Below, piece after piece: positions 5,933 to 18,403 of a DNA stretch of 64,000 nt (its first letter is position 1; the number at the start of each line of letters is the position of its first letter). The DNA comes from a virus (Duplodnaviria > Heunggongvirae > Uroviricota > Caudoviricetes). Where the stretch lies: the IMG/VR virus record IMGVR_UViG_3300029537_000168; one strand, 5' to 3'. A program made the position numbers and the translations under genes. Under the pieces are notes generated by a model that was not told the DNA's origin, did no database searches, and was given only the letters and a program-made list of their open reading frames with translations.

Positions 5933-6820
5933 TCAGGTTCGTGTAATTGAATCAATTACTTTTCTGTTTGCTTTATTAAGCAAATCTGTGCTTATGCTTG
6001 ATAAATATATACGTGTAGTTTCCACATTGTCGTGCCCTAATGCCTGACTGATTATCGGAATGTCAATTCTGTTATCTCTGGCTATGCTTGCCCAACTATG
6101 CCTGGCTACATACATAGTAACAGGTACAGAAAGATTCAATTTTTTGCTTATCTGTTTTAAGTAAACATTTGTTCGTTGCATAGTGCTTTTGGGGGTAGAC
6201 TGTATGGCTTTACTTAGCAGCTCATCTCTGTTTTCCCTTGCATATTTTTTCAAAATCTCACGAGCCTTTGGGTGTACTCCGACAATCAGCAATTGTTCGG
6301 TTTTTCTTCGTTTATATTCTATGGTATTACCTTTCAGATTCTCCTTTTTCAATCCAATCAAATCAACAGGAGCCATACCTCTCAGATAAAAAGAAAGCAT
6401 AAATAAATCCTTTGCTTTTTCTTCTTTATCCGATTGGGGTTCATACTGATAGAATTTACGGAAATCAGACAAGTTTAAAGCTCTATGTACCGTTTTTTCA
6501 TTTCCGGTAAAAACACGCCTAAATGGTTTCTTATCTTTAACCATATCTGCATTTACGGCACGATTGTATATAGCCCTGAATATTCTACAATAAAAAGACT
6601 GGGTGTTCTTCGTGCTACCGTTATTATATCGGATATAATCAGAAAAACGTTCTGCCATATCCGCATTTATATCACATATTCTTACATCTTTACCGTTTGA
6701 AAACTCTTTAAATTTCTTTTTAAAAGACAGATAATTCTGATATAATCTTTCTCTGTTCTGTTTTTTGAAAGAATTTAATATTTCATCCGTGTATTTTATA
6801 AGTGTTATATTGTAGTTCAT
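5933..6820 (-). CDS. tyrosine recombinase/integrase (SAM-like plus catalytic domain, no arm-binding domain)
   Basis: YLRGMAPVDL, KRRKT, YVARHSWA, LGHDNVETTRIY. Confidence 0.9.
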   Translation of the reverse strand: MNYNITLIKYTDEILNSFKKQNRERLYQNYLSFKKKFKEFSNGKDVRICDINADMAERFSDYIRYNNGSTKNTQSFYCRIFRAIYNRAVNADMVKDKKPFRRVFTGNEKTVHRALNLSDFRKFYQYEPQSDKEEKAKDLFMLSFYLRGMAPVDLIGLKKENLKGNTIEYKRRKTEQLLIVGVHPKAREILKKYARENRDELLSKAIQSTPKSTMQRTNVYLKQISKKLNLSVPVTMYVARHSWASIARDNRIDIPIISQALGHDNVETTRIYLSSISTDLLNKANRKVIDSITRT

Positions 6821-7935: not shown

Positions 7936-8055
7936 ACGTTTATAATTTAAAAATGAAGAAGGCCGGCGGAGTATTACTCTCCGTCGGCCTTTGCTCTAAC
8001 TTAAAACTTCGCTTCGCAGCGGTAGGAAATTATGATAAATATTTTTGGATATAAA

Positions 8056-8721
8056 TTAACCATCACCAACGCCACAGTCATAAATTTCAGTAATCTTGCG
8101 CCCTTCATGCGATAAACCCGAAGATAGCAGTTTTTCTTTAACGTATCTACGAAAGCCTTCATTCGACTGTACGCCTGAATACCTCGATGCCATACCGTAA
8201 AAGCGTTTAGGAATAGATATTTTATATCCTAATATTTCCTTCTTTATATAGTCATAATCAAAATGAAAAAACCTTTCATTATCTTTTTCAGTAAAGTAAG
8301 AAAAATCAATTTCTATATTATTTTCCACGCAGAATTTATAAGTTTTTTCGCATTCCTGTTTATATCTTTCATAAGCCAATGCTCTTTGCTTATCCTTGCG
8401 CTCTTGTTCTGCTTTCCATAATTCCTCTCTTTCTCTTTTACACTTCAGCACATACTTTAACACAGTTCCTTTAAGTGATACAAACTCACCATTCATTCCA
8501 CCGCGAGGGGCGTCGTTCCCTATTTCATGGCTTATGCCATGCTCTGTAAGAAGTTTATCCAGTTCTTCGGTATAACTCTTTTTATAATAGTAACCTCCAC
8601 TATACCGGCTCCGTACAGTATATGCTTTCCCATTGCGTAATAAATCATCTACATATTGATTCATTACTACACTTTTCTTCTTGTCTGAAAGCTCTCTTAG
8701 TTTTTCTATTTGTGTTTTCAT
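8056..8721 (-). CDS. hypothetical early protein
   Basis: 221-aa ORF with GNDAPRGG motif. Confidence 0.65.
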   Translation of the reverse strand: MKTQIEKLRELSDKKKSVVMNQYVDDLLRNGKAYTVRSRYSGGYYYKKSYTEELDKLLTEHGISHEIGNDAPRGGMNGEFVSLKGTVLKYVLKCKREREELWKAEQERKDKQRALAYERYKQECEKTYKFCVENNIEIDFSYFTEKDNERFFHFDYDYIKKEILGYKISIPKRFYGMASRYSGVQSNEGFRRYVKEKLLSSGLSHEGRKITEIYDCGVGDG

Positions 8722-8990
8722 TGATTTTACTTTTAAAATAATAATTCAGTTATAAAACAGATATAGGAATTATGATGATTTTTTTTGATATAAGATATAA
8801 ATACTATTTTTGTGCCGTCAAGGGATCGTCCCTTGTGGATTAAAACGAAAATCTACCATCGGTAGGTTTTCAGTTGTGAATTGCTTCACACTTTTAGTAT
8901 CTTAGCGCGGCGTACTCCGTCGCGCTTTTTATTTATTTCTATAAACCAGACTACATCATCATACTTCCTCCTTCGTTTCGAGTGTGCATC

Positions 8991-10055
8991 CTAACCAATC
9001 TTTGTCCTGATTTCTTCTATTATCCGACTGCACTCCTCTTTGGATATTTTCCCTGAATACGTTTCATCTACTTCCTTTTCAAATTCTTCCATGTTTCCAC
9101 GAAAATCTTCACAAGTAATTTCCACTTCATTTTTTTTAGTCCGGTAGGCATGTATGTGGCTAATGAATAGGCCTGAAAGATTGAACCCACAATGGCCCTC
9201 ATTGTCCTTTATCTCGGCATTGCCACGTATCCATGTAGGGCAGTGTACTAATTCGTTGTCATTTATCTCAGCATCATATACGTGGGCATTCTCGCATATT
9301 ATAGTCTCGCCACATACAGAGGAACAGCCATACACCTGTGCATTGCCATATATATCAACATTACCATATATATGAGCATTGCCATATACGTGGGCGTTCT
9401 CATATATACTGACATATCCATATACCCAGGCTTCACCATATATGTTGGCATCGCCATACACTTCAGTATTACAATGTATGTTAGCTCTATCGTAAACTTT
9501 AGCATACCCGTATATTTGAGCTTCTTCATGCACCTCGGCATAGCCATACACCTGAGCATTACCATATATTTGTGCTCCGTCATACACCTCGGCATAGCCA
9601 TACACCTGAGCATTACCATATATTTGTGCTCCGTCATACACATCGGCATTGTCATACACTTGAGCATTACCATATATGTATGCTCCGTCATACACATCGG
9701 CATTGTCATACACTTGAGCATTACCATATATGTATGCTCCGCCATACACATTGGCACAGCCATACACCCGGACGTTCCCATGCAACTTTGCATCACCATA
9801 TACCTCTGCGTCATCATATACCTTTGCGTTATCATATACCTGGGCATTGCCGTACACCTGAGCATCACCGAACACCAGAGCATTGTCATACACCCAGGCA
9901 TCACCTTCATGGCTAAGATTGCTTTCTTTTTCAACATAACCTCCAAAGTCGCCTTCTTTGGCGTACTTAAATGATTTTATGCATTTGATTTGAAACAATT
10001 TTTTCCCACTTGCGAGTTTTATGAATTTGTCAGTCAAAATAAATTTCTTTTCCAT
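8991..10055 (-). CDS. hexapeptide-repeat (left-handed beta-helix) protein
   Basis: Many (V/I)YG(N/D)A(Q/E) repeats; GGYVEKESNLS N-domain; start MEKKFIL. Confidence 0.85.
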   Translation of the reverse strand: MEKKFILTDKFIKLASGKKLFQIKCIKSFKYAKEGDFGGYVEKESNLSHEGDAWVYDNALVFGDAQVYGNAQVYDNAKVYDDAEVYGDAKLHGNVRVYGCANVYGGAYIYGNAQVYDNADVYDGAYIYGNAQVYDNADVYDGAQIYGNAQVYGYAEVYDGAQIYGNAQVYGYAEVHEEAQIYGYAKVYDRANIHCNTEVYGDANIYGEAWVYGYVSIYENAHVYGNAHIYGNVDIYGNAQVYGCSSVCGETIICENAHVYDAEINDNELVHCPTWIRGNAEIKDNEGHCGFNLSGLFISHIHAYRTKKNEVEITCEDFRGNMEEFEKEVDETYSGKISKEECSRIIEEIRTKIG

Positions 10056-10159
10056 ATTCCATACAGTTTTTACCGTGTGTCTCACAATTTAGATTAGAAA
10101 ATGTAGTCCGACTGGGTATTACTCCCAGCCGGACTTAAAACAGCCTTTTTAGTCAGGAA

Positions 10160-10471
10160 TTATTCACTAACTAAATTCTGGTAGAAGAAATAATCAAGCA
10201 CTATTACCAGCACTTTTGCTTCTTTGTCGTCGTACCAGTCATCGAAGTCGGCTTTAATTCCGGAATTTGCAAGAATAGTTTCATCATATTCTTCTTCGTC
10301 CATTTCGCTGAAGTCGCATTTTATTTCATCAGGAAGATTGTCAAGATCTATATCCAGCCCTTCTATACTGTCAGTGTGGATTCTATGATTTTTTCCTCTA
10401 TAGACATAAATTTCTACATCTGCACAATTAGACGCTAATTCTTTCAGGTAATTTTTTTCGTAAGTTATCAT
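10160..10471 (-). CDS. acidic hypothetical early protein
   Basis: 103 aa, D/E-rich, leader present. Confidence 0.65.
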   Translation of the reverse strand: MITYEKNYLKELASNCADVEIYVYRGKNHRIHTDSIEGLDIDLDNLPDEIKCDFSEMDEEEYDETILANSGIKADFDDWYDDKEAKVLVIVLDYFFYQNLVSE

Positions 10472-10600
10472 AATTCAACTATTTAATTGGTTAATATTCT
10501 ATTTCATATACTAAAAGTGACCGAAGGTTCATTACTTTACCTTCGGTCTTTTAACTAACTTAAAATTCCGCTTCACAGCGGCAGGAAATTATGATTATTA

Positions 10601-10840
10601 TCATTTCAGAAAACATAATCCGCAACGGTATTCTTTCTTATCTTCCGGAACTTCATATTCTAGCAGGTATTCCGCAAAGAAATCTTTCGCTTCCTCTTCA
10701 GTTCCGTTTACATCTTCACAAGCGCTGTCGTCTAAAATTATTTTCCCATCACATACAAGACGGTAGTATCCGCTTATGGACTGTTCGCATTCAAAATTCT
10801 TTCCTGTTGCTTTTACTACATCCTCAAAACTAGCTTTCAT
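10601..10840 (-). CDS. hypothetical early protein
   Basis: 79 aa, leader present. Confidence 0.6.
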   Translation of the reverse strand: MKASFEDVVKATGKNFECEQSISGYYRLVCDGKIILDDSACEDVNGTEEEAKDFFAEYLLEYEVPEDKKEYRCGLCFLK

Positions 10841-11102
10841 AACTCTAAACAGTTTTTCCCGTGTGCCTCACGATTTGATTAAACATTCGTAGTCCGAAAG
10901 AGTATCACCTCCGCCGGACTTGTTCTAACTTAAAACTAACTTGTGGAATTATTTTGTTAACGGTTTATATGTATTTCTCATAATTCTAAAAGTTTGACGT
11001 TGTAAATATAGTTATTTTTCTCAAGTAGCCGAATGAAAATCACTTTTCATTCGGCTGATTTACTAACTTAAAAACTAACGCTTCACAGCGTGACCGATGG
11101 AA

Positions 11103-11309
11103 TTATATTTCCAAATTATCTAATGCTTCTTTTTCTTCTTTTGACAGAAGACAAACGAAGTCATCGTTACTATAATAACCTTGATCTTCGTCCGGTTCGT
11201 CAAAACATCTTTTAGATGAATACATAACACTGCGTAAAGCATTATACTCGTCTTTTGTAAGACCTAATATGCTTATTGTTCCGTTTTTATTGAATCTTGT
11301 TCTGCTCAT
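11103..11309 (-). CDS. hypothetical early protein
   Basis: MSRTRFNK start defined by conserved leader. Confidence 0.6.
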   Translation of the reverse strand: MSRTRFNKNGTISILGLTKDEYNALRSVMYSSKRCFDEPDEDQGYYSNDDFVCLLSKEEKEALDNLEI

Positions 11310-11376
11310 AATTCTTTTTATTTTATAGTTACACATCGGTTCCGGATCAAGATGCAAACCTGAATCCGGAAGTAGG

Positions 11377-11838
11377 TTAGATGCGCATCATTTCAAGACA
11401 TTGTTTCATAGGTATAAGTTCGTCACCAAAGCATTGTTGCAGGAAATTGTAAGACAGCTTAAAATTTCCTTTTACGCTTCTTATTTTAAATATCTTACCT
11501 TCACATAATGACCTGAGATTTTCATCGTCATTAAGCATCCAGAATAGTTTTTCTAAGGAGTATTTTGGAAGCATCCCAGATATTTGCAATTTACCTACAG
11601 GGTGAACTTCTTTAGGAACATCCATTACTGTTACTTCGGCAGCAAAAATAGGAAAATCAATTATACAATCTTGTAAATCGTTTAGATTGTTATCGTCACC
11701 TTCATATAGGAAAGCATATTTTCTGAATCTGCTCCATATCCCGGGTTTAAGAATACTTTTGGATATTTCTACTGGTTCACCTTTCATGAATGTTTCACCA
11801 TTAGCTACTTTCTCGATTAAATTCTTTTCTACTTTCAT
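11377..11838 (-). CDS. hypothetical early protein
   Basis: 153 aa, conserved leader. Confidence 0.65.
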   Translation of the reverse strand: MKVEKNLIEKVANGETFMKGEPVEISKSILKPGIWSRFRKYAFLYEGDDNNLNDLQDCIIDFPIFAAEVTVMDVPKEVHPVGKLQISGMLPKYSLEKLFWMLNDDENLRSLCEGKIFKIRSVKGNFKLSYNFLQQCFGDELIPMKQCLEMMRI

Positions 11839-11902
11839 AATTCCAAAATTTTAGTTAGACAATGGTTCTCGTACCAATCTTTTAAATCGGTACGAAATTT
11901 TC

Positions 11903-12202
11903 TTAGCGAGCTTTTTCTATTTCCTGGTTGTAATTGTTTTGCAGAAAATACATATCCTCATTATAAAGTACATTCAGATAATTCAGTATTTTCTCCTTAC
12001 TTCTTACTTTCTTTATCTTTGATATGCTACCCATTCCATTGCTGTCAGTTCTTACATCTCCATTTTTAAATATTAAAAGAATACATCCTGTACATCCTTC
12101 CCAATCTGTTATGATTTCTCCTACTTGGAATTTACCATATTCTTTTACTTCGCTTTTATTGGCATAGTGACGAAAATAATGTTTCTCAATATTTATTACC
12201 AT
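11903..12202 (-). CDS. hypothetical early protein
   Basis: 99 aa, conserved leader. Confidence 0.65.
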   Translation of the reverse strand: MVINIEKHYFRHYANKSEVKEYGKFQVGEIITDWEGCTGCILLIFKNGDVRTDSNGMGSISKIKKVRSKEKILNYLNVLYNEDMYFLQNNYNQEIEKAR

Positions 12203-12273
12203 AATTCCTTGTTTTTAAGTTAGACGATAGTACCGGGCTAAGATCGCAGACTTAGACCGGTTAGTAGCTAATT

Positions 12274-12534
12274 TCATTTACGAGGTCTTATTTTTCTGAA
12301 CTTACCTTCATAATCAGCATTTACATGTCCTGATTGAGAAAGGGTTATATTCCTACTTCTTCGATACATTTTATATTCTCCCCACCAATATGCGTTATAT
12401 TTTTTACGCATATACTTGAGCAGATTTATAACTTCGTCAGGTTTTTCTCGTGAGTATTCAAACCATTCTGAAATGCCACCTTTCCCATCATTATCAAATA
12501 CAACTACTAATAGACCTGATTTTTGATTTCCCAT
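12274..12534 (-). CDS. hypothetical early protein
   Basis: 86 aa, conserved leader. Confidence 0.65.
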   Translation of the reverse strand: MGNQKSGLLVVVFDNDGKGGISEWFEYSREKPDEVINLLKYMRKKYNAYWWGEYKMYRRSRNITLSQSGHVNADYEGKFRKIRPRK

Positions 12535-12596
12535 AATTCTTTATTTTAAGTTAGACTATGTATCCGGAGGGAGTATCACTCTCCATCCGGATTTTC

Positions 12597-12788
12597 TTAG
12601 CTGGGAAAATCATCTTCCGTGAAATTAATTCCTGAATATGCCTCTTGTATTACTTTGTCAGAAATAATACTATCTGCTCTGGCAAGTTCATCATAAGAAG
12701 TGCCTTCTCCCGTTTCTTCATTTTGTTGTATCAGATAACTCTGCTTGAGTTCTATCAACTGCTCTCTGTTTAATTCTGATATATACAT
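12597..12788 (-). CDS. hypothetical early protein
   Basis: 63 aa, ELNREQLIELKQSY. Confidence 0.6.
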   Translation of the reverse strand: MYISELNREQLIELKQSYLIQQNEETGEGTSYDELARADSIISDKVIQEAYSGINFTEDDFPS

Positions 12789-12800
12789 GACTATAGGTTT

Positions 12801-13061
12801 TTATTTTTCAAAAAGAAATAATTCATTATTACCAGGTATATATACCTTACCGTTTTCTAAGCATAAGAATAAATCTGACTGACTATTTCCTGATGCTTTA
12901 TAAAACTCGTCGTAATTATATTTTTCTCCTTTGCTCCAGGAATATGTGCTTATACCTAAATCTCTATCAGAACTTATTCTTCTGCATGCTTCCTCGAAAC
13001 ACATGTTTTTCTTTCCTATTGGACAGAAAGTATAACCATTGTATTCAAAATCTTTTTCCAT
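12801..13061 (-). CDS. hypothetical early protein
   Basis: 86 aa, conserved leader. Confidence 0.65.
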   Translation of the reverse strand: MEKDFEYNGYTFCPIGKKNMCFEEACRRISSDRDLGISTYSWSKGEKYNYDEFYKASGNSQSDLFLCLENGKVYIPGNNELFLFEK

Positions 13062-13127
13062 AATTCAAATTTTTAAAAGTTAGACAATAAGTAAGGCAGT
13101 CGGAATCACTTCCGGCTGCCCTCTACA

Positions 13128-14252
13128 TTACAGAGAGAAAGCTGCTCTCAGTTCCGGCTCGCGTTTCTTTGAGAAAACCCAACCAGCACCGCATTTCAAC
13201 TTACCGTTGAATCGTCCGCCAAGCTCTTTGAGCTTCGCTACATAGTCACGGGTGTTACCGATGATGGCCACGGCCTTTTCGCTGTAATCTACAAGCTGCA
13301 AATCAGATTTATTTTCTACGGCTTTTGCTGTAGAACTTACAGGTTTTTCCTCCGGTTTCTGATAAAAATCTATATCACTCAGATAACCCCGTAAACAACT
13401 TGAAGCAGAAGTGTACTGGTTAGATTCCACAAACTCTGAATAAGACTTTGGGAGAAACTGATTTGTTTCAGTTATTCCGATAGCCTCGGGATGTTTGGCA
13501 TAGAATTTTTCTTTTGTTTCATTCCAGATTTTATCAGAATAGCTGCGTTCCAAATCCGGCATATAACCGATTCCACCATATAAGGAAGTAAACTCGCTTT
13601 TGATGTGTTCTTCAATGTCCTCGTATCCGTTAAATGTCGTATCTACAAACTTAGAACAGATTTTAGCAACCATCTTTTCGGTCGGACCGTCCGTCCATCT
13701 TACGTTGTAGCTGTTTGAACCATTCTTTTTGGAATAGAACTTTATACCCGGAAAAGCACGCTTCAGAAGCACAAGCATGTTTTGTTTGGCCGTCTTGTCG
13801 TCATAGCTATTACACTCAGTCAGTATCGAGCCATACTCTTTTCGGAGCTGATCGGTACGATTTTGGCTGGCTATACGTTTGTTTTTCTCCAGACGTTCAT
13901 TCCATGCCTGCTGTACTTCGCACTGGTGAACCAGTTTGGCTATTTCCTGCTCGGGCATACGGTAGTCGGGCTCTTTGTCGTCCCAATAGTAACCAATACC
14001 GAACTTCTTTGATAACGGCTGGTCGTCCTGGCCTACTCTCCAATATGCGAAACGGTGCCATCCTCCAATTTCGGCCATTTGCTGCCGTCCGTGAATGTCA
14101 GGAGCAGAAGTCACGATAAACTTACCGCTTTCGCTTCCTCCATAACCTAAGAATCCATAAACGCGCTGGCCTACTTCGAGAACTTTTTTACCGATTTCTA
14201 CCATCTGAAAACCATTTGACCAATCCATTCTGTACATTTTTCCTGATTCCAT
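13128..14252 (-). CDS. LPD29 (large polyvalent protein domain)-containing protein
   Basis: LKRAFPGIKFYSK...VRWTDGPT; C-terminal DYSEKAVAIIG..LKELGGRFN..GWVF domain. Confidence 0.75.
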   Translation of the reverse strand: MESGKMYRMDWSNGFQMVEIGKKVLEVGQRVYGFLGYGGSESGKFIVTSAPDIHGRQQMAEIGGWHRFAYWRVGQDDQPLSKKFGIGYYWDDKEPDYRMPEQEIAKLVHQCEVQQAWNERLEKNKRIASQNRTDQLRKEYGSILTECNSYDDKTAKQNMLVLLKRAFPGIKFYSKKNGSNSYNVRWTDGPTEKMVAKICSKFVDTTFNGYEDIEEHIKSEFTSLYGGIGYMPDLERSYSDKIWNETKEKFYAKHPEAIGITETNQFLPKSYSEFVESNQYTSASSCLRGYLSDIDFYQKPEEKPVSSTAKAVENKSDLQLVDYSEKAVAIIGNTRDYVAKLKELGGRFNGKLKCGAGWVFSKKREPELRAAFSL

Positions 14253-14314
14253 AATTCTATAAATTTTAAGTTAGACAATGACCCCGGCAGATTCTTAAAA
14301 ACCTGCCGGAATGT

Positions 14315-14857
14315 TTAAGCTACACAGAAGTAGAAATCACCCTGATGGCGGTATCCGCTGGTAAGCAATGTCCTGGAGTATGCTTCGTAGTCGAAATACT
14401 GACCGAACTCTGTTTGAAGTTCTTCAGGCCATTTCATTTCCGCCATATAGGTGGCAAACGCTTCCTCAGAATCAAATTGCCCTGCGTATTTATCTCTGAA
14501 CTTTTCTACGAGCTCTTCACCGTCTTTGATATAGGAATAATCCACAAAGTACATATCAAGAAACGTAAAAAATGCTTCTGTCTCTGTGTCATCCATATCT
14601 TTTGCACACTGAATGATACCAAATATTAGCGGGTCGATATAGCTTTCGTTTATCATACCGTCTGGTATGTTATTATAGTCCTGGTACATAAACTCTGGCT
14701 CTTCCTCGTCGCTATGCAATTCCTTGCAGGCTTCCATAAACTTATCTTTCGATTCATAGTCGGCCAATTCCATCCATGCGCCAGCCAGCGAACCTTCATT
14801 ATATTTCTTATATGTACCTACATATACACTTGCTCTGAGTAATTTTGATTTTTCCAT
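14315..14857 (-). CDS. ardA: antirestriction protein ArdA
   Basis: VYVGTYKKYNEGSLAGAWMEL, EFMYQDY, YFDYEAYSR; highly acidic. Confidence 0.9.
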   Translation of the reverse strand: MEKSKLLRASVYVGTYKKYNEGSLAGAWMELADYESKDKFMEACKELHSDEEEPEFMYQDYNNIPDGMINESYIDPLIFGIIQCAKDMDDTETEAFFTFLDMYFVDYSYIKDGEELVEKFRDKYAGQFDSEEAFATYMAEMKWPEELQTEFGQYFDYEAYSRTLLTSGYRHQGDFYFCVA

Positions 14858-14920
14858 AATTCCTTTGTTTTATAGTTAGACATGGCAGCCGATACAGTTA
14901 CAACGCTGTACCGGCTAATA

Positions 14921-15289
14921 CTATGAAGCTTTGTAGCCATCCTCTGTCTCAATTATCACACCCTGACTGATTGCATAGCTTACAGCCTGCGATGTAACAA
15001 TACCGAAAACGTCACAATCTTTTTTGATGTCATCCATGTACATGTCATTCCAATCTACCTGAACGTCATCATCTTTCACCCATACGTCAATCCATTCGCC
15101 CCACCAACCGTCAGGAAGCTGTACATACACCGCACAACTTCCCGGACCGTCTATCTCGATCTTTGTGGCTACGGCTTCATTCTTGCATATTCTTCTTACT
15201 ATTTTCTTATGATCGGGACGATGATTCATTTGTGAATACATAACTTTTGTAATTCTTTCCCAATCCTGGGTTGTCAATGATTTTGTCAT
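14921..15289 (-). CDS. hypothetical early protein
   Basis: 122 aa, conserved leader. Confidence 0.65.
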   Translation of the reverse strand: MTKSLTTQDWERITKVMYSQMNHRPDHKKIVRRICKNEAVATKIEIDGPGSCAVYVQLPDGWWGEWIDVWVKDDDVQVDWNDMYMDDIKKDCDVFGIVTSQAVSYAISQGVIIETEDGYKAS

Positions 15290-15353
15290 AATTCCTATAG
15301 TTTTAAGTTAGTAATCGTGTCTGGAAGTACCGTAAAGTACCTCCAGCATGGAA

Positions 15354-15569
15354 TTAATACCCCATAGCGTCGTAGTACGATTTGTTTTTTACGTACTCTT
15401 TTGCTATTTCGTAGTCACTGCAATCTTCGCCGAGCTTTGCGCTAATACTTTCGTATGCGCTTTTTGGCATTACATAGATAACCTGTTCGCTCCAGTCGGA
15501 ACGACCAGCGAAACACAAAGCCACGAATAAAAACACGCAGCACAGAATGACTTTCATTTTCTTTTTCAT
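15354..15569 (-). CDS. small exported/membrane protein
   Basis: MKKKMKVILCCVFLFVALCFAG signal-like N-terminus. Confidence 0.6.
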   Translation of the reverse strand: MKKKMKVILCCVFLFVALCFAGRSDWSEQVIYVMPKSAYESISAKLGEDCSDYEIAKEYVKNKSYYDAMGY

Positions 15570-15630
15570 AACTCAAACTATTTAAGAAGTTTGCAGGCCG
15601 TACACTGGCAAAGGTGAACGGCCTGATAGG

Positions 15631-15837
15631 TCATAGTCTGATAGCATTCTGGCAAGCAAAATCTGTAGATAGAATATGTAAAACTTGCATATCTGATATT
15701 TCTTTATATCGCGCATTCCGATTTGAATAGTCCATACAAACTGCTTTTGCGTGATTTAGAATGTTTGTTACGCATAGATTAATATTTTTACCATTCCATG
15801 TGTTACATGTTACCAGATAAAATTTATTTTTTACCAT
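15631..15837 (-). CDS. hypothetical early protein flanked by direct repeats
   Basis: 68 aa, conserved leader. Confidence 0.55.
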   Translation of the reverse strand: MVKNKFYLVTCNTWNGKNINLCVTNILNHAKAVCMDYSNRNARYKEISDMQVLHILSTDFACQNAIRL

Positions 15838-15900
15838 AATTCAAAATAATTTTAAGTTGTGATTGCAGGCCGTACACCGGTAAAGGTGAACGGCCTGATT

Positions 15901-16206
15901 TTAATCATTAAGCATAGAAGCTATTGCTTTCTGCTCTTCCTGGAATTTATTCCATTCTCTTTCTTCTTCCGCTTTCCGATTCATTCGATATGAGCTGTAT
16001 CTTTGTTTTTCCAGCACGTCCATACTTTCATATTCACGTACAAACTCCCGGTGAAACTTCAATGTATCTGAAACTTCATAGCATACACCATCTTTGGCAA
16101 GACGATAATTACATTCAGATTCATAAGCTTTTTCAAACTTTGTAGCACATGAAGTAAAAACAGAAGCACACAATACGATTGATACGGATAAGATGATAGT
16201 TTTCAT
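15901..16206 (-). CDS. putative lipoprotein
   Basis: MKTIILSVSIVLCASVFTSC lipobox. Confidence 0.65.
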   Translation of the reverse strand: MKTIILSVSIVLCASVFTSCATKFEKAYESECNYRLAKDGVCYEVSDTLKFHREFVREYESMDVLEKQRYSSYRMNRKAEEEREWNKFQEEQKAIASMLND

Positions 16207-16224
16207 AATTCAAAAAGTTTATAG

Positions 16225-16910
16225 TTATACATACAAGAAGTGCCATGCACCCGAAAGCGCATAGCACTACATAGGTAGGGGTTTTCCGTACCACCCCCGA
16301 AGCTGGTTTTCGTTGCGTTGACGCATACCCGCCTATATGCACCATGATACACTATTTGCATAGCGTTCACGGATACACTTTTCGCATAGACGACCTTTGC
16401 AGGCGCACCGCCATACAGACACACGTGTCCGCATGGTACGTTGATTCCATAGGCCCGGATAACTCCCAGCCCGTTCCATACATACGCTAAAACAGTATGG
16501 ATCTTTTCCGGTTAACTACTCCGGCATACACCCAAGATTGAACAGGGCATAGCACACCCGTACATGAATCCATACGGACACGGTGCACCCTGACTGATCG
16601 TTCAACACGTTGCAGGACTCACCGCACCCATACGGGTACAGTTATGCCATAGAATTATGAATTATGATTTTCGCGGCCCTGGATACCTTCAGACTCTTGG
16701 CCTGGATGACTATAGGCGCATGGACACACCTATCCGCACAACACATAGTAAACCCGTGTTGTGTTTCAAGACGGCCCACAGTGCAGCCTTATGCAGCTGG
16801 AGTGTATAGTCCCAAATACTACATATAGATACCCTTTTCGCCGGCCGTATGAGATAGAATATATTTTTGTGGGTGTCCGGGAATCGGACCCGGACGAATA
16901 CCATACACCC
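16225..16910 (-). ncRNA. candidate long non-coding RNA, UAUG-rich
   Basis: No convincing ORF; about 18 CATA on plus strand; tRNA-minihelix-like 5' part. Confidence 0.4.
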
Positions 16911-16916
16911 TAAATA

Positions 16917-17456
16917 TTAAGCCGCGTCTACAATACGTTCTGCTATTTGTAGCAACATATCTTCAGAAGCGTCTAAGAATTCTATTTTTAAAGCTTGCAA
17001 TGTAGCGTTTATCTTAGATTCACGTTTTTCTGCTTTCTTTGTTTCTTTCTTTGCCTCTTTCTCTTTTGCTGCTTTTTCCAGTTTTTCCTTTGCCTGATTT
17101 ATTTGTAGCAAACTTTCTAAGCTTGCAAAAAAATCATCTTCATCGAATCTTATTGGAACGTATTCGAAATATTTTTTCCCTATCTGGACTACTTTTAATT
17201 CGTTCCCGTCCAATGTTTCAATATCTGATAATCTTTTTAATTTACAGAAAACAGGCAAACCGTCTCCAAGCTCGAAGCTTAGCAACATAGAAAGATCAAC
17301 TTTCTTTATACCGTAAAAATCTAAGTATCTTTTGATTTTTTCCTGATCACGGTTTTTGTTTATTGTGTTCATAACGCCAAACGGTGATCTATTAAGCTTT
17401 TTAGTTTCTTTTTTAGCTTCGCGTCTCAATACTGATTTAGATACATTTGTTTTCAT
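16917..17456 (-). CDS. Lys-rich first gene of early operon
   Basis: 179 aa, conserved leader, repeated EAKKETKK. Confidence 0.7.
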   Translation of the reverse strand: MKTNVSKSVLRREAKKETKKLNRSPFGVMNTINKNRDQEKIKRYLDFYGIKKVDLSMLLSFELGDGLPVFCKLKRLSDIETLDGNELKVVQIGKKYFEYVPIRFDEDDFFASLESLLQINQAKEKLEKAAKEKEAKKETKKAEKRESKINATLQALKIEFLDASEDMLLQIAERIVDAA

Positions 17457-17939
17457 AATTCCATAATTTTAAGTTAGTAATATAGTAACGGGTATCGACT
17501 ATGCACGACCCGGGAGAACATAGTTCACCCGTTAGGCTACCTTTCGGCTCCTTTCCCGTTATCAATATATTACTATCTCATACGGATTATTTGTTACAGA
17601 CTAACCGCGCCGCGTGTACTTTGTTCCGTTTGCTTTCGTGTGTGGCTTGCAAACTATGCAAGCCGGGAAAGTATCAAACTATGATAGTGAACAGGATCAC
17701 CAGCCGGAACGCGGATCACGTTTATACGGTTTTTTTTCAAAGAACGTTTTTTCTTTCTGGATATTTTCGGGAACGGAAAGAAAAACGTATCTTTGTTTTG
17801 CGACAAACAGAAGAAAGTTTTATCTTTCTTTTTCCCGCGGGTATTCCTGTAATACCCGCTTTTTATACCTGGAAAGAACGTTTTCCGGGCTTTGGGAAGC
17901 CCCGGAGGCTTCTTGTAATCTTTGTTTTCGATTACACTA

Positions 17940-17969
17940 CAAAGGTACATAATATTCTCTATTGTGCAA
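17940..17969 (-). promoter_or_regulatory. Bacteroidota primary-sigma promoter of early operon
   Basis: TTG-N19-TACCTTTG. Confidence 0.65.
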
Positions 17970-18056: not shown

Positions 18057-18092
18057 CTGGTGGCGTTCCTCACCATGTAGGAACGCCACCAG
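18057..18092. repeat. perfect 14-8-14 inverted repeat
   Basis: CTGGTGGCGTTCCT-caccatgt-AGGAACGCCACCAG. Confidence 0.95.
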
Positions 18093-18260
18093 CAGCCACC
18101 AGCGGACATCAGCAGCCACCAGCGGACATCAGCAGCCACCAGCGGACATCAGCAGCCACCAGCGGACAGCAGCAGCCACCAGCGGACAGCAGCAGCCACC
18201 AGCGGACACCAGCAGCCACCAGCGGACATCAGCAGCCACCAGCGGACAGCAGCAGCCACC
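18091..18260. repeat. 20-bp tandem repeat, 8.5 units
   Basis: AGCAGCCACCAGCGGACA(T/G/C)C units. Confidence 0.97.
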
Positions 18261-18403
18261 ACCCGGGCATATATCACCGACGGACGGGGCCCCAGAGGGA
18301 CACGTCCCACGTAGCGAGGCGCGGGGTTTTCATCGTGAATCGGGCAAAAATCTTTTGTTTCAACTCCAAATTATCAGATTGTTATTCAGTTTTGAAGGGA
18401 ATA

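Follow-up and report, generated by a model that had tools for sequence, protein, structure and literature searches.

The CI RNA of phage P4 is described, in parts of PMC4825925 and PMC10111431, as being processed from the transcript that it controls and as pairing with flanking complementary sites, and a section of PMC5499578 names P4 CI and the C4 RNA of phages P1/P7 as substrates of RNase P. C4 itself appears in part of PMC12197685 as a structured antisense RNA that pairs near the ribosome-binding region and blocks translation. The element reported here is like P4 CI in that a phage RNA would silence the phage's own genes by pairing, presumably after processing from its own transcript; P4 CI, however, is short and acts through premature termination at two sites, whereas the element is about 675 nt long and has about a dozen start codons as its putative targets. 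It shares with C4 the plan of a structured phage antisense RNA with exposed seeds, the exposure being predicted in the present case. For C4, on the other hand, the target is the ant mRNA in an enterobacterial phage, whereas the element would address a tag shared across an early regulon, has a much larger body, matches C4 neither in sequence nor by covariance model and, unlike C4, belongs to a host lineage without Shine-Dalgarno sequences. Other large, ornate RNAs of bacteria and phages, such as ROOL, GOLLD and OLE, are 600-800 nt long and densely structured; the element is like them in size, dense structure and phage location, but unlike them it has no Rfam match, a narrow distribution and an antisense seed for its own operon. 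The sponge RNAs CsrB and RsmZ carry a repeated GGA motif in loops or single strands and have CsrA as their partner. The element resembles these in holding many copies of a short motif in a non-coding RNA, but its motif lies mostly inside predicted helices, whereas CsrB/RsmZ display theirs in loops. CsrB/RsmZ served as a comparison system (part of PMC12119571), and Bacteroides reportedly lacks CsrA (PMC13370968).

The DNA analysed here (the window, 64 kb in total) belongs to a virus that is a Bacteroidales phage of gut bacteria, and probably a temperate one. Pfam identified integrase, ArdA, LPD29, KilA-N and HU domains in the window, a terminase-like gene was also found, and close terminase homologs carry the labels Mediterranea massiliensis (99%) and Phocaeicola plebeius (90%). 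The element, on the minus strand, separates the first gene from the second behind a promoter box near 17940. Judged from its sequence, it is an uncatalogued large phage RNA element, related in kind to the phage antisense regulators, and we lean towards reading it as a conserved non-coding RNA, likely cut from the early transcript, that would damp early translation through pairing between its linker and a tag on early start codons. The features of the locus, all on the minus strand, are as follows.

17933..17947: Bacteroides-type -7 promoter box TAnnTTTG, the likely start of the early transcript
16917..17456 (read from 17456 to 16917): early gene 1, 179 aa, directly upstream of the RNA element
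16236..16910: the entire predicted non-coding RNA (about 675 nt), lying between gene 1 and the early gene that follows
16869..16910: predicted tRNA-like acceptor stem and T-arm at the 5' end (hairpin 16877-16893, 7-nt loop)
16672..16868: variable 5' domain, with at least three interchangeable versions
16652..16671: invariant anti-start linker AAAAUCAUAAUUCAUAAUUC, with two overlapping copies of CAUAAUUC
16549..16650: predicted long irregular rod with G-U pairs, in which two copies of CCGUAUGG pair together
16508..16524: predicted hairpin whose 9-nt loop AGUAGUUAA is predicted open
16270..16500: 3' body of predicted hairpins and a second rod, with most (G/C)UAUG motifs and their GUAUC partners
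16239..16268: predicted 3' terminal 13-bp hairpin and U-rich tail, a terminator-like or processing stem
10471..17461: putative targets, with the tag GAAUUAUG on start codons, complementary to the linker
17456, 16206, 15837, 15289, 14857 (ArdA), 14252 (LPD29), 13061, 12534, 12202, 11838, 11309, 10981 and 10471: starts with GAAUUAUG
15569 and 10840: putative target starts with GAGUUAUG in place of the tag
10555..10594: small anti-leader module (anti-tag, GUGA/GCGA hairpin, anti-UAAC box)
About 11063-11106, 10925-10952 (without hairpin) and 7996-8035: further anti-leader modules

The promoter box near 17940, whose TAnnTTTG we take to be the Bacteroides -7 promoter consensus, is the sole one on the minus strand within 13.7-18.8 kb, and is kept in 5/5 homolog leaders compared. 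Between it and gene 1 runs a 460-nt structured leader (17466-17930, minus strand), which holds GTTCTTTGAAAA at 17734-17745, presumably boxA-like (the single match in the window, and not above chance with one mismatch allowed), as well as a T-arm-like hairpin that reads GACCG-UUCGAAU-CGGUC in the homologous locus L056. A tandem repeat of 8.6 copies of a 20-nt unit is found at 18090-18261, and many related contigs stop about 700 nt upstream of gene 1, beside this repeat. The product of gene 1 had no match in Pfam or the atlas, its structure model (pLDDT 83.8) had none in PDB or BFVD, and neither Pfam nor fold comparison gave it an RNA-binding annotation. With its counterpart in locus L182 it shares at most distant homology (probability 40%), and the exact tag is often missing from gene 1 in homologs. 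The stretch 8700-17460 (minus strand) forms a cassette array, each gene carrying the tag together with a hairpin and a UAACU box; early cassettes are exchanged between relatives right at the tag; a tyrosine recombinase gene is encoded at 5933-6820 of the same window.

Gene 1 led to 23 viral loci, and each of them contains the element. Its core is 82-99% identical in 12 of the 14 loci where gene 1 is merely 37-48% identical, the remaining two likewise show the element, and two metagenome loci with a different upstream gene fall within the same 82-99% range. The gene downstream is swapped as well, with 11 different N-termini among homologs; the core is thus conserved whereas the flanking genes diverge or get exchanged. 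Outside this group, BLAST in INPHARED and PLSDB yielded no distant homologs of the element, gene 1 found no match among GTDB representatives, and the pattern matches in GTDB (25), in viruses (39) and in part of the metagenomes (13/39) were unrelated by BLAST. The covariance model R1 matched the window only among 48 sources and one of 16 virus records, scans by LPD29 and terminase gave no sister clade carrying the element, two samples of 301 Bacteroidia genomes contained no close prophage, and no lineage with a changed tag was found among the sources and virus records examined. Two near-complete relatives, G018 and G023 (97-100% complete, terminase 92% and 97% identical), have neither tag array nor element, and their joint absence is probably due to a module swap in one event. 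There, the whole tagged array has given way to another early module of about 5.5 kb (L309:15900-21300 in G018, L321:18700-21800 in G023).

A structured non-coding RNA on the minus strand, as an earlier note on this DNA had surmised, is supported by conservation and covariation. Protein-coding signal is absent from both strands: no reading frame is kept across 16 homologs, in line with the note's failure to see a credible ORF, the minus-strand ORFs shift frame, and a 1-nt indel interrupts the plus-strand ORF that starts from the linker. The fold is more stable than shuffles on the minus strand (z -4.1, against -1.6 on the plus strand), and alignment folding gave a structure conservation index of 0.85 for the minus and 0.60 for the plus strand. 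Across an alignment of 13 related sequences, 98.7% of the 1676 cells of 130 pairs are paired and 16/130 pairs change on both sides, a number reached in 0/500 shuffles; this pair set was derived from the same alignment on which it was scored, after removal of helices shorter than 3 bp and of pairings with the downstream start. Many base changes turn G-U into G-C or A-U, which preserves pairing on the minus strand only, and the share of G-U pairs (0.18, against 0.18 in shuffles) is not raised. The "many short stems" of the note are there, though the phrase understates the structure, since the core holds a rod of 35 predicted pairs. An Infernal search against Rfam, which the note had suggested, found no family at the gathering threshold, and at E<=10 the element still had no match.

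At the 5' end, the tRNA-like structure, so named after what we take to be the T-loop consensus, is kept in three unrelated 5' variants, one of which forms a near cloverleaf with the loop UUCGAUU. Taken alone this fold is not significant (z -1.3), and ARAGORN found no tRNA or tmRNA gene in the window; an RNase P site at the structure may set the 5' end of the RNA. Loci L182 and L190 have a different 5' domain, and homology there begins at the linker. Helices 1-2 of the rod are paired in 99.5% and 99.7% of cells, with 10 pairs varying on one side and none on both, and the rod as RNA has an energy of -42.3 on the minus strand versus -23.8 on the plus strand. The loop AGUAGUUAA could pair with the UAACUA box upstream in the early leaders, and the three variant loops seen among 46 variants retain this complementarity; the contact did not form in cofolding. 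The 3' body comprises helices 6-13, with two-sided changes in helices 7-12, and in the 3' terminal hairpin (helix 14, z -6.1) three pairs change on both sides. The element may alternatively fold into UAU-loop hairpins.

The part of the element that points to a function is the linker at 16652-16671, whose two copies of CAUAAUUC are complementary to the tag GAAUUAUG of the early genes. By composition, 0.008 copies of CAUAAUUC would be expected in the element, which has two, and the linker is invariant in 46/46 unique variants (drawn from 165 locus matches, many of them duplicate records). Conversely, the minus strand of the 64 kb holds GAATTATG 15 times, and 13 of these copies sit on start codons of early genes (10471 to 17456); two of the three copies of its complement lie in the linker. 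The early set was chosen by position and comprises 17 ORF starts, one of which opens just 10 codons; 13 of these have the exact tag, two have GAGTTATG, with pairing kept through G-U, and two have no tag, compared with 0/52 tagged among other phage starts. The mean duplex energy with the linker is -10.9 kcal/mol for the 17 early starts and -5.1 for the 52 others (p 2.5e-8), and no other part of the element shows such a pairing preference for early starts. As a host-type background, 145 of the 147 listed genes of one Bacteroides ovatus record also gave a mean of -5.1. Only 2/145 of these starts are tagged while 69/145 read plain TATG, so the tag is not the general host context. For the same reason the note's remark that the repeated motif is "the same UAUG" that ends the early leaders carries little weight; a tie to the early leaders is supported, through complementarity in this one linker rather than through mimicry by UAUG. 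The tag is kept on 67/71 distinct leaders in 15 homologous modules (68/82 with a looser filter), and six of nine single-change tag variants are A to G and thus wobble-compatible, which is weak evidence, as the same is expected from transitions and from the -3 rule. The linker has a mean unpaired probability of 0.84 in the mature form and 0.45 with the next start codon included, and the seed is only 8-13 bp long, with mostly A-U pairs. The exposed seed of C4/CI-type RNAs thus has a predicted counterpart here, with complementarity to the phage's own early transcripts.

The small anti-leader modules repeat the same theme, mirroring both boxes of the early leaders; most surround a GUGA/GCGA hairpin and are followed by a second hairpin, and 20 distinct variants were counted in homologs. 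The module at 10555..10594 is predicted to form a three-way junction with 3/4 leaders tried (-12.9 to -19.3 kcal/mol). Positions 8767-8774 were listed along with these modules.

The sequence comparisons thus document the operon position, non-coding conservation, minus-strand covariation and exact early-specific complementarity of the element, from which the following course may be pictured. The early transcript, starting at the promoter near 17940, would include the element, and RNase P would release it at the tRNA-like 5' end, as the tRNA-like structure alone suggests. In the precursor the linker is predicted to fold back on the next start codon, and after release to be open. The released RNA would then act in trans on about a dozen mRNAs by pairing over tagged start codons; since the AUG lies within the duplex, we infer that the effect is repression and not activation. 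The outcome would be a delayed negative feedback in the manner of P4 CI RNA: early anti-defence proteins, ArdA among them, would be made in a burst and then shut off. By analogy, our best reading is that the element may work like the P4 CI/C4 antisense regulators without belonging to those families, since the Rfam C4 and isrK covariance models do not match it (gathering threshold; E<=10). A more ambitious version, in which one large processed RNA silences shuffled cassettes via a universal tag read by linker and loop while the UAUG wobble helices bind a protein or drive multimers, is tentative and on balance doubtful; if true, it would, together with the small mirror modules, give anti-defence genes a timer made of RNA alone in hosts that initiate translation without Shine-Dalgarno sequences.

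Phages need rapid expression of anti-defence genes and then their silencing. A fixed tag on freely swapped cassettes together with a mirror RNA would place a newly acquired gene under control at once. The literature searched gave no description of post-transcriptional silencing of anti-defence genes in Bacteroidota phages without Shine-Dalgarno sequences, nor of this RNA; the catalogue in the supplements of PMC10690425 might list it as an unnamed candidate, and the part of them that was searched held no match for five motifs and one contig id. A further gain is a large structured RNA that is uncatalogued and bears a selected sequence motif.

The same observations can be arranged without action in trans, the element being a leader in which the linker folds back on the next gene's start codon and gates either its translation or read-through past the 3' hairpin. 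The linker does pair with the downstream start in the ensemble when that start is included (rough measure 0.83), and a terminator-like hairpin lies before the next leader. However, the downstream gene is the one that is swapped, yet the tag stands on all cassettes and not on the first alone, and two tandem seeds exceed the need of a single cis target. We regard a purely cis-acting leader as unlikely.

The linker-tag pairing that we favour gives no reason for the retention of the UAUG motifs, through which the element had originally been noticed. All 17 CATA positions listed in the earlier note were exact, and an 18th, at 16822, is CATAT. On the plus strand 16225..16910 contains 18 CATA, nine CATAC, eight CATAG, four GATAC and seven TATG. 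The enrichment is real, but the "about 3 expected" is a mononucleotide figure (3.2), and dinucleotide shuffles give 6.9; in none of 5000 dinucleotide-preserving shuffles were there as many as 18 (z 4.9; for the top 4-mer z, family-wise p 0.009), which bears out the formal k-mer enrichment. The element is also richer in GC than its neighbours, as had been said (49.6% versus 33.0% and 35.3% in the flanking genes). A comparable CATA(C/G) density is approached in the window only by the YdcK repeat gene at 9.1-9.5 kb; this gene (8991-10085, minus strand) encodes a YdcK-type beta-solenoid repeat protein, whose codons produce the window's other CATA(C/G) peak. Origin of the motif as a (UAUG)n microsatellite is unlikely, with six copies of AUGU against 18 of UAUG.

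The motif is conserved in homologs: the transcribed strand of 30 unique elements has 15-23 (G/C)UAUG copies and the opposite strand 0-2 (17 versus 2 in the window element, 23 copies in L003 and L066). Paired motif columns are invariant in 49/62 cases, compared with 156/249 other paired columns (p 0.016), so the motif appears to be under selection beyond pairing and may bind a protein. Among 26 motif sites in 38 cores, 13 are nearly fixed and 11 are minor, including gains, a minor count that takes in insertions and alignment shifts (control motifs show up to eight minor sites), and the 3' body carries additional lineage-specific copies. These features, namely excess invariance, site gains and many copies under selection, are what would be expected of a CsrB-like protein sponge or scaffold with (G/C)UAUG as binding sites, a function compatible with an antisense role. 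The earlier note had proposed such a sponge, for which display of the motif in loops would be expected, but the UAUG sites have a mean unpaired probability of 0.27, exceeding 0.5 at 20% of sites; most are predicted in helices, with each other or with GUAUC/CAUG as partners, and the GUAUC partners account for the GATAC copies that had been noticed. The UAU tri- and tetraloops are suggestive, but hairpin-centred UAUG was borderline in a flank permutation test (13/18, p 0.04; 7/18, p 0.07), and the alignment fold favours long rods. Furthermore, the enriched motif is (G/C)UAUG and not GGA, no Rfam CsrB model matched, and no candidate binder was found, gene 1 included. The in vitro motif of RbpB, GUAGGAUA, lies on single strands according to part of a preprint (bioRxiv 10.1101/2021.04.27.441718), unlike the mostly paired UAUG. 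Sponging as the main function is thus improbable. Most simply, the UAUG-rich helical body may be a stabilising scaffold that perhaps also binds protein, and protein binding is our leading guess for the role of UAUG.

Linker-tag pairing might instead act positively or as a processing guide, by protecting, cleaving or delivering early mRNAs. The complementarity data fit this equally well, and the RNA would be produced alongside its targets from the operon's head, at a time when they should be expressed; but the AUG itself lies under the duplex, and Bacteroidetes initiation favours start regions without structure (part of PMC6847099), and we consider a positive role quite improbable. Still less probable is a DNA element, either the array of protein sites that the note had offered as an option or GAATTATG serving, in either orientation, as an operator or a site for cassette recombination. 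It would suit the exchange of cassettes right at the tag and the strand bias of the motif, but variation preserves G-U pairs on the minus strand only, the rod folded as DNA is weak on both strands (-15.8 and -13.1), there is no 10-11 bp phasing (p 0.13-0.40), and the mirror modules place a hairpin between the two boxes. Finally, a start-codon decoy that soaks up 30S subunits, the note's other suggestion, could point to 23 AUG in 686 nt, in a phylum that avoids stray AUGs close to starts (part of PMC6847099), but is scarcely credible, with A at -3 in 3/23 of them versus 93/141 host-type starts, AUG always after U or C and never before A, UUAUG absent, the sites GC-rich and most UAUG predicted paired.

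RNA libraries were examined, for 8/24 listed runs, as assembled contigs, which carry no strand or end information. The core, which is also the most conserved part, is covered with little flanking cover in X11, X13, X15 and X20, the flanking genes are covered too in X1, X4 and X12, and X7 is without the core. A TAnnTTTG box on the plus strand within the element (16862-16869), aimed antisense into gene 1, occurs in some homologs and is absent in L056 and L182. Elsewhere in the array, two near-identical 37-nt intergenic hairpins (15591-15627 and 15863-15899; z -6.7) are possible processing or termination sites.
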